A DNA stretch of 64,000 nt from contig JACRJQ010000008.1 of NCBI GenBank assembly GCA_016215405.1, forward strand, positions 25,866 through 89,865, read 5' to 3'. Below the pieces are notes generated by a model, which saw nothing but the letters and a program-made list of their open reading frames with translations, did not search any database and was not told the DNA's origin. Below are positions 19,352 to 40,442 of this stretch, piece by piece; the stretch's first letter is position 1; each line of letters opens with the position of its first letter. This DNA is from Candidatus Tayloriibacteriota bacterium. GTDB lineage: Bacteria > Patescibacteriota > Minisyncoccia > Phycocordibacterales > UBA6065. A program made the translations under genes and the position numbers.

Positions 19352-20855
<1,504 letters not shown>

Positions 20856-21260
20856 AAACCGCAGATGGAGATCCCGAAGGACTTCTATCTGAGGCGAACG
20901 GAACAAAATAGATCACAGTATGCGAACTATCTTCTTCCTGGGAGATTCACGGGTGCTTTCCCGCCTCCACGATCCTATGGAGCATGGGGTCGAAAGCCCT
21001 CTTACAAATTTTCATTTGAATAGAGCCTACCCTCATGCTTATATCCGAAGAATACACTTGAACTTGCACAATACAGTTAGGATACTGTTTTACCAGTACA
21101 CTTTAACTTGCATTTGTTCTCTCCGCCGTGGCCAATGTGGCCCGGCGGAATTGATTATCTCAATATTTCAACGATCTCCTCACTAAGAGACCGAGGGAAT
21201 CAAAAAGTGCTTTACCAGCACTTTCTGACGTCCCACAAGGCTCTCAATGAGGTAAGGGTA

Positions 21261-36420: not shown

Positions 36421-36543
<123 letters not shown>

Positions 36544-36742
36544 CTCAATCCTCGCTATTTGAAACACAACAGATAAATATGAATTCTGAGAAAAGACAGT
36601 AAGCCTGAGCTTCCTGTGATTTCTAAATTTCCTAATAAGATCGGGTAATTAGTACTTCTCGGCTTAACACATTACTGTGCTTACACCTAAAGCCTATCAA
36701 CCTAGTAGTCTTCTAGGGCCCTCAAACGATTCCTTATCTTGG

Positions 36743-36785
<43 letters not shown>

Positions 36786-36921
36786 GACATAGCTACTCTG
36801 CGTTGCCACGGGCGTGACAGCAGATAGACCAGCGGTCCGTTCACTTCGGTCCTCTCGTACTAGAAGCAAAGCTCCTCAAGAATCAACGCCTGCAGTAGAT
36901 AGGAGACCAACCTGTCTCACG

Positions 36922-37200
36922 CTTCTTTTCGCATGTTGCCATGCGGAATGGACTATATCTTCATCCTTATTTATTTATTCATAAGGAGATCAACGTGTAG
37001 TCTCTACGGACGGGAACCCGCGCTCCCTTTCCTCGGTATTGCCCCCAATCATCTCCATTGTGGGTTTTACCGATATTAGTTGATGACGTACATGAAAGTT
37101 GCCCTTCATGACCGCCGTGATTGGTTGTGTCTCGTTTGTTTGTCCTTGATGTCCGAGGGATTCAGACTGTAGAGCCTATAATCTTTCGATTATGTTCTCC
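36922..37200 (-). other. ~280-nt ORF-less insertion (putative group I intron) in 23S at the E. coli ~2593 (I-CreI) site.
   Basis: It interrupts the conserved gctgggttcagaacgt|cgtgagacagg. The exon sequence resumes precisely on both sides. Confidence 0.55.
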
Positions 37201-37860
37201 ACGGTCTGAACCCAGCTCACGTGCCTTTTTAATTGGCGAACAGCCAAACCCTTGGGACCTTCTCCAGCCCCAGGATAAGACGAGCCGACATCGAGGTGCC
37301 GAACTCCGCCGTCGATATGAACTCTTAGGCGGAACGAGCCTGTTATCCCTAGAGTAGCTTTTGTCCGATAATCTTCCCCCGCATCTAATGCGTAAGGTCG
37401 GTTCACTTAGCTCTGCTTTCGCATCTGCTCGACAAGTACGTCTTACAGTTAAGCAAGTTTATGCCCATACACTATCGCCACGGTTTCCATTCGCGGCTAA
37501 CTTACCTTAATAGGCTCCTCCGTTACTTTTTAGGAGGATAGCGCCCCACTAAAACTACCCACCAGATACTGTCTCCCGCGGTTTTTGCCCTCGGGGTTAG
37601 AACATACAACGGCGAAGAACGCTATTTCACTGGCGACTCCATGCTGGCCGAAACCGCACTTCAAAGTCTCACGTCTATGCTACGCATCGCAATCGTATGC
37701 TCAATATCAAGCTGTAGTAAAGCTTCTAGGGTCTTTTCGTCTAACTGCAGGTACCCGGCATCTTCACCGGGATTGTATTTTCACCGAGCTGTACTTCGAG
37801 ACAGTTGCCCAGACGTTACACTATTCAACGCGTCAGAACTTACCTGACAAGGAATTGCGC

Positions 37861-38073
37861 TCAACTATTCCTCAGAGTTGGACTCTATCTTCAGCCTCTC
37901 TTTTAAGGGAGTAGGCTGCGCGGCGTTGGTCTCTATTTGACCGCGTACGGACTGACGGTGCATTACTGCCACCTCAGGTAGCTATCTGTGTAATTTCTAT
38001 TAGGCTCTTATTTATCAACACAACTATAGATCCGTCCCAGTCCTTCTGCATCCTTCCGAAGAAAGATGCAGAA
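37861..38073 (-). other. ~210-nt ORF-less insertion (putative intron) in 23S at the E. coli ~1925-1931 site.
   Basis: It interrupts the conserved ggtcctaagg|tagcgaaattccttgtcgg. The flanking sequence matches E. coli on both sides. Confidence 0.5.
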
Positions 38074-38917
38074 CCTTAGGACGGTTATAGTTACCGCCGA
38101 CATTCACCAGGGCTTACATTCATCAGCTTGATATAATCGCACCGCAAATGGTTGACCTTCTGGCATTGGTCAAGTGTCACCCCCTATACATCCTCTTACG
38201 AGTTCGCAGGGAGCTGTGTTTTTGATAAACAGTCGCCAGGCATACTTTAGCTGCGGCCCCTTGAGTAAACAAAGGGCAAGCCTTATCGCTAACTTACGGC
38301 TGCTTTTTTGCCGAGTTCCTTGAAGTACCTTCACTCGTTCGCCTTCGTCTTCTCGACGTGATCACCTGTTTCGGTTTTCGGTACGGATCACCTCCGGTTG
38401 TGCTTAGAGACTTTTCTTGAAAGCGCGCTTTGCATAGTTCCCCGTAGCAAGCTACGGCTTCCCTCCTGTCTTTAGGCTCGCTAATTGAATAGCTGCTTGC
38501 GGGATTTTCCTCGCAAACGCCCTCTGACCAAAGACCCCAATCCAATAAGGGGCTACGCATACTGTGCTCCGTCATCCCATCGCACCGGGTGTGAGTCACG
38601 GAATATTAACCGTGTGTCCATCAGGTACGGCTTTCGCCATCCCCTTAGGCCCGACTAACCCTTCGCTGATATCCATTGCGAAGGAAACCTTAATCTTTCG
38701 GCGTGCGGATATCCCATCCGCATTGTGGTTACTTGTGCCAACATTCTTACTTCTCTACGCTCCAGCATGGGTCACCCCTTTGCCTTCAGCGCGAAGAGAA
38801 TACTCTCCTACCAGAACATCTATACGAATATAGATGCAATCCTCAGTTTCGGTATCATGCTTTAACCCCGATCATCTGCGGCGCAGACTCTCTAAGTGAG
38901 TGAGCTGTTACGCTTTC

Positions 38918-38949
<32 letters not shown>

Positions 38950-39529
38950 TCACCGTCGAAGAAAATCCACCACCTCCCTTGTACTTAGCATGAATTTTGG
39001 GACCTTAAATTGAGATTCGGGCTGTTTCCCTTTTGTCTAATGGAGCTTAGCCCCCACAGACTTACTGCCGTTCTTTTGACCAGAGGTATTCGGAGTTTGA
39101 TAGGTTCTGCGATCTTTCGACCTGTCAGAATCTTCCAGTGCTCTACCCCCTCTGGGAACGAACGACGCTATGCCAAAACATATTTCGGAGAGAACCAGCT
39201 ATTACCGAGTTCGATGAGCTTATCACTCCATACCACATGTCATCGCAGAGTATTGCACGTCTCTAGCGTTCGGTCCTTCCTCTATCTTTCGACAGAGTTC
39301 AACCTGCACATGGCAAGCTCACCCGGCTTCGGGTCTGATACGTACTACTTTGTCGCGCTATTCACACTCGGTTTCCCTGCGGCTCCGGGCATTCAAGCCC
39401 TTAGCCTTGCAGCACGCATCAACTCGTTGGCTCATTCTTCAATAGGCACGCCGTGACGGTAATAAATTACCGCTCCGACTCCTTGTAAGCATATGGTTTC
39501 AGTTCTATTTCACCTCCCTCTCCGGGATA

Positions 39530-39569
<40 letters not shown>

Positions 39570-40442
39570 TTCTGGAATATTTAGCCTTAGCGGTTAGTTC
39601 CGCCAGATTCCCTCAGGCTATTCGTGTCCTGAGGTACTCAAGAATGGCAATAAAAGAGGTGTTTCGCTTTCGCGCACGGGACTATCACCCTCTGGGGTCT
39701 GTCTTTCCAGACAATTACGCTAACGAAACACTTTGTAACTCTTTCCACTATAAATAGTGACACTGCCACCTTACTACCCCCGATCTTAATCGCGTCCTAC
39801 GTCTTGCGACATAATCCGCGATTAAGACCGAGTTTGGGCTATTTCGCTTTCGCTCGCCACTACTAACGAAATGTTGTCGACATACATCGACATTGTTTTC
39901 TCTTCCTCCTGGTACTGAAATGTTTTACTTCCCAGGGTACGCTCATTCATGTCAAGCATGAATGTCTCTGGTATCTCTACCAGAGGAGTTGCCTCATTCG
40001 GAAACGACCGGATTAACGCCTGTTCAGCGGCTCCCCGATCATATCGTTGCTACACAACGTCCTTCATCGCTTCTCAGAAGCCTAGGCATCCACCATATGC
40101 TCTTAAATTTCCTATTAGGAAATTTAAAAACCACTTAACTTCTCTCAATGATATCGGCCTGCTTACAACAGACCGACATACAATTCATTTTTACCTGTTG
40201 CCCGTTTCTTTTGGTAAAGAAACGGTTTATCTCGATCTACCGTCTATAGATAGATGAGAATCGTCTCGCGCTCTTCTTTTGACGGGCCGACCTGGCCCTA
40301 AGCGCGTACGGGGTTTCGTTTTCAAATAACTCTCTGAAAGAAAAACCGCTCTTCGGAGAGCGGCATCGGAACAGGGCCAAATCAATGGCCTATTTGATGC
40401 GCGTTCTCTTAAGGGGATTCAACATATTCAGAGGTAGCCATA

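Follow-up and report, generated by a model that had tools for sequence, protein, structure and literature searches.

What kind of element can split an invariant stretch of 23S rRNA, and how might it be taken out again? This question is raised by the 23S rRNA gene on contig JACRJQ010000008.1, of which a stretch of 64,000 nucleotides (64 kb; hereafter the window) was analysed. Between U1931 and A1932 of this gene (E. coli numbering) lies an insertion of 211 nt, which we read, with a probability of about 0.7, as a natural derivative of homing group I introns that has no P4-P6 domain, belongs to a lineage of Patescibacteria and is still removed by group I chemistry. To our knowledge, every group I intron is taken to have two core domains, of which P4-P6 is one. 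Judged from its sequence, the insertion has kept the catalytic half of such an intron, namely P3, P7 with a bulged A and the guanosine-site G-C pair, P8, J8/7, P9 and the terminal G, and, from the splice site up to the guide sequence, carries a lineage-specific 5' domain made up of H1, helix A and segment X.

An insertion in an invariant stretch of the 23S rRNA gene

The 23S rRNA gene occupies positions 36628-40120 on the minus strand of the window (Rfam LSU_rRNA_bacteria, the model of the bacterial large subunit (LSU) rRNA, 2256 bits) and is 3493 nt long, against 2925 positions in the model. Its exon junctions define an intron that runs from window position 38072 down to 37862, and the RNA reads ...ACCGUCCUAAGGU / 211 nt / AGCGCAAUUCCUUGUCAGGUAAGUUCUGACG... 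across it, with GGUAACUAUAACCGUCCUAAGGU as the longer text of the 5' exon. The preliminary description of this DNA, which was made from the letters alone, had placed at the 1931 site an intron-type insertion without an open reading frame (ORF), and both statements hold. Its coordinates, 37861-38073, mark the right locus, but the two end positions are the flanking exon bases A1932 and U1931, and the length of 212 nt given there has to be corrected by one. It had likewise put the exon split in the right place, but the letters on either side are cgtcctaaggt / agcgcaattccttgtcagg and not ggtcctaagg / tagcgaaattccttgtcgg.

Run on positions 37650-38250, the LSU model opens a 214-nt insertion within the invariant CCUAAGGUAGCG, between H69 and H71, and the alignment then continues in register, as had been claimed for the downstream exon. 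Because the insertion lies inside this invariant stretch, it is not an expanded variable helix; a structure-aware placement in such a helix had been named beforehand as the outcome that would speak against an intron. The longest ORF on the sense strand has 35 amino acids, and there is no endonuclease ORF of the kind found in homing introns. Its predicted folding energy of -68 kcal/mol corresponds to a z-score of -3.7 relative to shuffled sequences. Removal of the intron is predicted to give the ligated-exon junction CCUAAGGU / AGCGCAAUUCC, to which the 32-mer ACCGTCCTAAGGTAGCGCAATTCCTTGTCAGG corresponds.

Group I elements in the insertion

At the gathering threshold of the general Rfam model Intron_gpI (RF00028; 50 bits), a scan of the whole window returns no match for the insertion. 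A search of 226 nt aligns it end to end at 24.0 bits (E = 2e-4), so the covariance-model check proposed with the preliminary description would be read as negative or marginal at default settings. In this alignment, P8 and the J8/7-P7 element GAAGAUAGAGUCC are placed at high posterior probability, and 111 model positions, from the 5' strand of P3 through P4-P6 to the 5' strand of P7, are met by 4 nt. The score is low because only 5 nt lie between P3 and P7, at the point where longer relatives carry P4-P6.

The elements around this gap are those of a group I core. AGAGACC and GAAGAUAGAGUCC are invariant and complementary, and they form a bulged-nucleotide P7 (G140-C193, G142-C192, A143-U191 and C144-G190, with A141 bulged) that includes the guanosine-site G-C pair and is joined to the J8/7 consensus. 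P3 and P8 flank the P7 strands in the arrangement of the P3-P7 pseudoknot. As in other group I introns, the 5' exon ends in U (U1931) and the intron ends in G (G211, the omega G). The elements AGAGAC and AAGAUA.AGUCC are common to canonical relatives and to the other intron of the same gene (see below). On these grounds we take the insertion to be group I-derived.

At the inner end of P7, the short family described below has two fixed mismatches, C145.A189 and A146.G188 (window 37927-37928 and 37884-37885, minus strand). Relatives with AGAGACUA / AAGAUAUAGUCC have U-A and A-U at these places, and an intron at position 2593 in locus L203 has C-G at the first of the two. Two further loci, L141 and L188, combine CCUCAGAGACCA ... 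AAGAUAGAGUCC in endonuclease-bearing introns whose 3' exons resemble mitochondrial cox1, which points to a connection of this bacterial lineage with the introns of organelles.

The second insertion of the gene, whose existence had also been noticed beforehand, is 279 nt long, ORF-less and located after U2593 (window 36922-37200, minus strand), with the junctions GACCGU / GGAGAAC...AAGAAG / CGUGAGACAG. It is a group I intron that scores 44.1 bits with Intron_gpI, just below the threshold, and aligns over P3-P9 with P4-P6 intact.

A family of short introns at position 1931

Introns at position 1931 (L1931 introns) were collected in two scans. In the first, which covered one genome per species and looked for the J8/7-P7 consensus followed by the exon at 1932, L1931 group I introns were found in at least 120 species of many phyla. 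A family of about 630 nt with the guide sequence GCUAGCCUUAG occurs in Acidobacteriota, Proteobacteria, Nitrospirota, Chloroflexota and others, and a separate family in Eremiobacterota. A third, short family (198-260 nt) shares with the window intron the 5' hairpin, the motif GGACU(G/A)GGAC and the 3' end GAGGAAUAGNNG. The hosts of L1931 introns as a whole also include Planctomycetota, Gemmatimonadota, Chlamydiota and others, and these introns are far commoner in metagenome-assembled genomes than the older literature suggests.

The second scan searched metagenomes for the family core pattern AGAGACCA...AAGAUAGAGUCC without tying it to a site, and gave at least 120 further loci. From among the matches listed, to which the following counts refer, 116 members had both the 1931 and the 1932 junction; 94 of these are distinct and no longer than 270 nt. 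The alignment used below has 95 rows, and 79 distinct rows were used for the intron-exon counts. These mini introns, as we call them, are 180-260 nt long and all stand at position 1931; no mini-type member was found elsewhere by this site-independent scan, and the other matches were endonuclease-bearing introns (some at other sites, some mitochondrial cox1-like) or chance matches in coding DNA. The last intron base is G in 95 of 95 metagenome members, for which the 3' end was set by the exon alone.

Covariation and secondary structure

From 29 members and a hand-derived structure we built a covariance model, R1. It matches the window once, at exactly 37862-38072 (186.7 bits, E about 1e-44), with no other match in the 64 kb, and aligns all 94 relatives at scores of 61 to 194 bits. 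Six helices covary strongly in the R1 alignment: 93.8% of the cells are paired, against 33-43% when the partners are slid, and changes on both sides are seen in 38 of 41 pairs. The covariation score is 0.772, compared with a control maximum of 0.105, and none of 500 shuffles reached the observed values. A naive all-against-all covariation scan on a MAFFT alignment was too noisy for use. The features and the evidence for each are collected in Table 1; the variants of helix A include GGACU/AGUCC, GGAUU/AAUCC, UGACU/AGUCA and GAACU/AGUUC.

Two other observations concern the 5' domain. GGACU at 30-34 (38039-38043) is complementary both to AGUCC at 120-124, its partner in helix A, and to AGUCC at 189-193 (37880-37884), the 3' strand of P7; pairing with the latter may represent an alternative, inactive conformer. 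In segment X, no covarying helix was found in the R1 alignment, in folds of the single sequences or by RNAalifold, and a substitute for P4-P6 sought there by the latter two gave no helix shared by the family.

Table 1. Features of the L1931 intron and its exon partners in the window. Numbers in brackets after a feature are intron positions p, where the window coordinate is 38073 - p; negative and positive numbers count from the splice sites into the 5' and 3' exon.
Feature	Window coordinates	Strand	Evidence
Whole intron, 211 nt, start UCUGCAUC, end AUAGUUG	37862..38072	-	Junctions; LSU model insertion; R1 186.7 bits
5' exon GUCC (-10 to -7, E. coli 1922-1925), pairs with intron GGAC 36-39 (P1a)	38079..38082	-	100% paired, 79 rows
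5' exon AGGU (-4 to -1, ends with U1931), pairs with ACCU 94-97 (P1)	38073..38076	-	Complementarity; U-A in 79/79
H1, 12-bp hairpin with UUCG loop, starts at base 1 (1-12 with 17-28)	38045..38072	-	Two-sided changes in 12/12 pairs; 96.1% paired
Helix A, 5' strand GGACU (30-34)	38039..38043	-	Pairs with 120-124
Helix A, 3' strand AGUCC (120-124)	37949..37953	-	Covariation
GGAC (36-39), partner of 5' exon GUCC	38034..38037	-	Compensatory exon variants
Segment X (40-90), variable, 27-79 nt in the family; motifs UUAUAG, AAUCAUUACA	37983..38033	-	Alignment
Internal guide sequence GCUACCU (91-97): GCU to P10, ACCU to P1	37976..37982	-	Near-invariant, 95 rows
P2 hairpin (99-118), GNRA-type loop C-A-GUAA-U-G	37955..37974	-	Two-sided changes in 8/8 pairs; loop G, U/A, A, A kept
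P3, 5' strand CGCGGU (128-133)	37940..37945	-	Two-sided changes in 6/6 pairs; 98.2% paired
Linker CAAAU, 5 nt (134-138), place of J3/4-P4-P5-P6-J6/7	37935..37939	-	5 columns, no insertions, 95 rows
P7, 5' strand AGAGACCA (139-146); G140 and G142-C144 pair with G190-C193, A141 bulged	37927..37934	-	Invariant
P3, 3' strand GCCGCG (149-154)	37919..37924	-	Covariation
P8 hairpin (155-181)	37892..37918	-	Two-sided changes in 5/6 outer pairs
J8/7 and P7, 3' strand AAGAUAGAGUCC (182-193)	37880..37891	-	Invariant; aligned to Intron_gpI consensus GAAGAUAUAGUC
P9 (194-197 with 207-210); loop GAGGAAU (200-206) pairs with 3' exon	37863..37879	-	4/4 P9 pairs covary
Terminal G (omega G)	37862	-	G in 95/95 members
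3' exon: AGC (+1 to +3) to P10; AUUCCUU (+7 to +13) pairs with P9 loop	37849..37861	-	Pairing counts

Pairings between intron and exons

A U.G wobble pair is regarded as a near-universal mark of the 5' splice site of group I introns, and the mini introns depart from it. Directly 5' of P2, where canonical L1931 introns have their guide sequence, stands a conserved G(C/U)UACCU, and the layout of guide and P2 matches that of GCUGCCU and P2 in the longer relatives L093 and L109. The GCU of the window guide is complementary to the 3' exon AGC (P10) and the ACCU to the 5' exon AGGU (P1). G91, U93, A94 and U97 are invariant, and C95 and C96 occur in 94 and 93 of the 95 rows. P10 is paired throughout (100%); G+2 is opposite either C or U at position 92. 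The exon bases of P1 and P10 never vary, and the only changes are one-sided (C/U at 92; U at 95 or 96 opposite G). The guide sequence lies about 90 nt from the 5' splice site, which is unusually far.

Two further helices tie the intron to its exons. Intron positions 36-39 pair with positions -10 to -7 of the 5' exon as GGAC/GUCC in 59 of the 94 members and as GAAC/GUUC in 31, the other 4 being wobble or compensated variants, and the helix is unpaired in none; over the 79 rows, one of its pairs is divided into 52 C-G and 27 U-A. The loop of P9 pairs with positions +7 to +13 of the 3' exon, with examples such as AGGAAU/AUUCCU, AGGUAU/AUACCU, GGGGUAC/GUACCUU and AAGGGAAUA/UAUUUCCUU; this helix is 94.8% paired and shows AU/UA and UA/AU/CG exchanges. 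The counts over the 79 rows and the percentages of pairing come from a concatenation of the relevant segments in fixed register and without gaps (A4). From their connectivity, P1a, P1, P2 and helix A could close into a four-way junction with linkers of 1-2 nt.

Three other pairings were considered and set aside. A canonical P1 directly after the splice site would have to share its place with H1, which begins at +1, and U-1 would then face A29, a position that varies between A, C and U. The segment GCGCAGCCU (152-160) is complementary to both exon ends, lies inside P3/P8, is unconserved in the family and was treated as a chance occurrence. The exceptions L111, L236 and L233 break a helix between the guide sequence and the 3' strand of P9 (C92-G208).

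Longer relatives and the missing domain

How the family may have come by its reduced core can be seen from longer CPR relatives of the same lineage: L109 (279 nt, Magasanikbacteria), L093 (313 nt), L215, L161, L164 and L100. They share with the mini introns H1, helix A, GGGAC, the guide sequence and P2, P3, P7, P8 and P9, and at the point of the 5-nt linker they read ...UAUAUGCUGG...CAGCAGG...CCUC, that is, J3/4-P4-P5-P6-J6/7. R1 covers L109 and L093 from end to end and sets 69 and 146 nt, respectively, against 12-13 model positions inside P3. L109 reaches 51.3 bits with Intron_gpI, above the threshold, with P3, P4, P5, P6 and P7 aligned, and its match leaves out roughly the first 90 nt of the intron; the 5' domain is therefore an addition specific to this lineage. 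The mini family thus has, by sequence comparison, the appearance of a natural P4-P6 deletion derivative.

Most relatives that keep P4-P6 have GCUGCCU, with G at the wobble position, and so the usual U.G pair. L215 and L161 have A there and keep P4-P6; loss of the wobble and loss of P4-P6 are therefore not strictly coupled. Still longer relatives (L021, L010, L035, L032 and L148) contain LAGLIDADG_1 genes, located in the region of P6 or P8, and those of L021 and L010 score 84-97 bits. The simplest origin would be a single deletion that took the endonuclease gene and P4-P6 together from a homing intron.

The gene, its host and other insertions

The 5S gene (36428-36535) directly follows the 23S gene, so that the two span 36428-40120, and an Rfam scan of the window places the 16S gene apart from them, at 19353-20856; the rRNA genes are unlinked, as the preliminary description had proposed. 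The 23S-5S pair lies about 16 kb upstream of the 16S gene on the same strand. A tRNA-Ile comes after the 16S gene, and no tRNA-Ala was seen in the 64-kb window. The G+C content of the window is 57-59%, which is high for a genome of the Candidate Phyla Radiation (CPR), and that of the rRNA genes is about 49%. In domain I of the 23S gene (window 39790-39890, minus strand), about 33 nt are added at the tip of a hairpin and 23 nt stand where the Rfam consensus has 8; these segments look like ordinary helix expansions.

Among the matches listed, the 23S gene is nearest to genes of the Paceibacteria type (77-80% identity to L014, L012 and L053), and the exons of metagenome contig L181 are 91.6% identical to those of the window. 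From these comparisons the host looks like a CPR bacterium, in line with the CPR pattern suggested earlier. L181 carries an L2593 intron too and an orthologous L1931 intron that is 83.5% identical; the differences from the window include compensatory changes in H1 and P8, and the comparison as a whole is consistent with purifying selection on the intron. A search with the flanking protein for sibling contigs with or without the intron yielded a single contig (Logan SRR12113407), which stops before the 23S gene.

The named hosts of mini-type introns among the matches listed are Nomura-, Yonath- and Zambryskiibacteria, Paceibacterota, Minisyncoccia and Saccharibacteria, all Patescibacteria; the others are unclassified bins and one bin labelled Nanoarchaeia. 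L1931 introns with the CPR-type 5' domain also turn up in bins labelled Gammaproteobacteria (L032 and L035) and Nanoarchaeia (L096), which are most likely mis-binned rRNA contigs. The site, E. coli 1931 in a CPR host, is the CPR insertion site 23IS7.

Other insertions were surveyed in the 43 family loci that hold all landmarks of 23S rRNA from about 1778 to 2654. An L2593 insertion accompanies the mini intron in 27 of them, and 8 have no other insertion of at least 100 nt between these landmarks. The other loci have insertions in the landmark intervals 1932-2060, 2060-2447 and 2447-2505 and, in one locus, 2505-2583. A second R1 match in L203, considered as a mini intron at another site, turned out to be no more than the P3'-P8-P7' end of an L2593 intron that contains an ORF.

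Discussion

In the reading we favour, the intron would be removed by the usual two transesterifications, with the guanosine bound in P7. The elements kept would carry the guanosine site and the catalytic J8/7, and what is missing would be the scaffold domain together with the J4/5 receptor of the wobble pair. The splice sites would be held by four pairings, GUCC with 36-39, AGGU with 94-97 (U-A at U-1), AGC with 91-93 and AUUCCUU with the P9 loop, and this exon-pairing clamp, together with the 5' domain, may make up for the missing scaffold and receptor. More tentatively, the mini introns could be autonomous natural group I ribozymes without P4-P6 and without the U.G wobble, in which a bipartite P1, the helix between the P9 loop and the 3' exon and a pseudoknotted four-way junction at the 5' end replace the positioning by P4-P6 and J4/5.

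Several points weigh against removal by group I chemistry. Of the defining features of group I introns, three are wanting: P4-P6 is absent, as only 5 columns without insertions separate the 5' strand of P3 from AGAGACC in 95 of 95 rows; U-1 faces A94, without a U.G wobble, in all 79 distinct rows and all 95; and the Rfam score remains under its threshold. P7, P1 and P10 are invariant, so their support is complementarity and homology rather than covariation. The intron-exon counts depend on a concatenation (A4) whose register was fixed by hand, and the covariation between the exon and positions 36-39 is largely one split between two subfamilies, which may represent few independent events. RNAalifold favours 31-34 paired to 189-192, in competition with helix A as well as P7. 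We prefer helix A and the exon pairing to GGAC 36-39 or GACU 31-34 as P7 partners, both of which RNAalifold selects, because compensatory changes are found only for the former two. Engineered group I ribozymes without P4-P6 stay active, but are about 1000-fold slower, as far as the work of Ikawa et al. is cited in PMC2879505, and such slowness seems ill-suited to the maturation of rRNA without help. Finally, a paper title cited in PMC11270868 reports that the Simkania intron at the same site is unspliced.

Help from outside is indeed a possible variant of the favoured reading, in which a reduced ribozyme would depend on a protein cofactor or maturase, or on a P4-P6 domain acting in trans, which the L2593 intron of the same transcript could, for example, provide. 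The slowness of the engineered ribozymes would fit such dependence, as would the second group I intron of the window gene, with its intact P4-P6, and the presence of an L2593 insertion in 27 of the 43 loci. However, the 8 loci that have no other insertion of this size show that a sibling rRNA intron is not a general requirement, tblastn with the endonucleases of relatives found no LAGLIDADG gene in the 64-kb window, and the extensive covarying clamp between intron and exons suggests a solution based on RNA. A relic without catalytic activity is an unlikely alternative; it would either remain part of the mature 23S rRNA or be excised by host RNases, which would leave the 23S fragmented. Such a relic would account for the loss of P4-P6 and of the wobble, for the sub-threshold score and for the report on Simkania; yet 94 divergent members show no variation in J8/7, in the P7 strands, in the guide sequence or in the terminal G, and six helices covary, a pattern expected of a working ribozyme and not of a tolerated spacer. 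Moreover, the site is at the subunit interface, flanked by H69 and H71, and CPR rRNA insertions are reported, in PMC11270868 with reference to Brown et al. (2015), to be absent from transcripts. Excision in the manner of intervening sequences processed by RNase III also fits poorly: such sequences in 23S rRNA (helices 25 and 45) are likewise short and ORF-less, but they are found at the tips of variable helices, with both ends joined in one long stem, whereas the window insert interrupts the invariant 1925-1935 stretch and its ends do not pair with each other, the 5' end folding as H1 and the 3' end as P9.

Two further explanations were weighed. That this is an ordinary, complete group I intron poorly scored by the general model could be argued from the end-to-end match and from the neighbouring L2593 intron, which also falls just short of the threshold; it is very improbable and already contradicted by the Rfam alignment, in which 4 nt stand for 111 positions, by the constant 5-nt linker, by the alignment of L109 and L093 and by segment X, in which no helix able to replace P4-P6 was found. 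That a normal rRNA helix has expanded in this lineage, or that the insert is an artefact of assembly, has nothing in its favour beyond the extra length of the gene and can hardly be entertained: the LSU model places the insert in an invariant single-stranded stretch, and more than 100 independent assemblies have the element at the identical base, so that this explanation, too, is already contradicted.

The site itself has a history. L1931 introns of 654-700 nt with LAGLIDADG genes are known from Simkania, Thermotoga and Synechococcus (Haugen et al. 2007, PMC1995217), and Synechococcus genes combine L1931 and L2593 introns (PMC1995217), as the window gene does. Organelles, too, have L1931 introns with LAGLIDADG genes. 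The window intron agrees with these LAGLIDADG introns in its insertion point, in the U at the end of the 5' exon and in its terminal G. P3, P8, P9 and the J8/7-P7 consensus are common to both, and the exon bases to which the putative guide sequence is complementary are the same. The LAGLIDADG introns differ in having an endonuclease gene and a full P4-P6 with a complex P5 region, whereas the window intron has 211 nt, no ORF, no P4-P6 and a U-A pair at the splice site; it also has a 5' domain of about 90 nt before its guide sequence, which the non-CPR L1931 families lack, and none of these matches R1. The longer CPR relatives, L109, L093, L215 and L161 as well as L021 and L010, share that domain and the P9 loop AGGAA, and differ in keeping J3/4-P4-P5-P6 and, for the most part, the G of the wobble. 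In CPR bacteria, 82% of 23S genes contain insertions, position 1931 is named as a hotspot, and the endonuclease I-ShaI was derived from an insertion at this position (Tsurumaki et al. 2024, PMC11270868). Of the CPR 23S insertions, 45% could be classified as group I with Rfam (PMC11270868); a 24-bit match such as that of the window intron would probably be missed in a classification of this kind.

Short introns are found elsewhere in bacteria, including the tRNA introns of Patescibacteria, for which self-splicing has been shown. They are of similar size (about 200-250 nt) and have no ORF, but they are inserted at other sites and, as far as we know, keep a complete P4-P6 and the U.G wobble. The closest parallel for the architecture is the engineered 'minimal catalytic domain' ribozymes (Ikawa et al. 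2000, as cited in PMC2879505), which lack the same domain and retain the same P3-P7 core; these are, however, laboratory deletions of the Tetrahymena and T4 td introns with low activity, as described there, whereas the mini family is natural, conserved and equipped with extra exon-binding helices. A search of the open-access literature for natural group I introns that lack P4-P6 brought up only the engineered case. The earlier observation of an intron in this gene is correct and, at that level, already known biology, as are the site and its CPR context; the reduced architecture appears not to have been described before. What is new, to judge from sequence comparison, would be a group I variant of about 100 relatives without P4-P6 and without the wobble, furnished with additional covarying exon-binding helices.

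More than 90 divergent natural sequences that lack both features are clearly under selection for structure, at a site where failed removal should damage the ribosome. If they do splice, they would be the natural counterpart of the laboratory 'minimal catalytic domain' and offer a compact system, with a core of about 120 nt and a clamp of 90 nt, for the positioning of substrate helices without P4-P6; they would also account for part of the approximately 55% of CPR 23S insertions that a general covariance model leaves unclassified (PMC11270868). Should they prove autonomous, they would represent the first 'half' ribozymes of group I found in nature, and with them a new minimal architecture of this class. 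For the lineage itself, the mini introns illustrate a late stage in the life cycle of a homing intron, which persists after the loss of its endonuclease gene and of part of the ribozyme.

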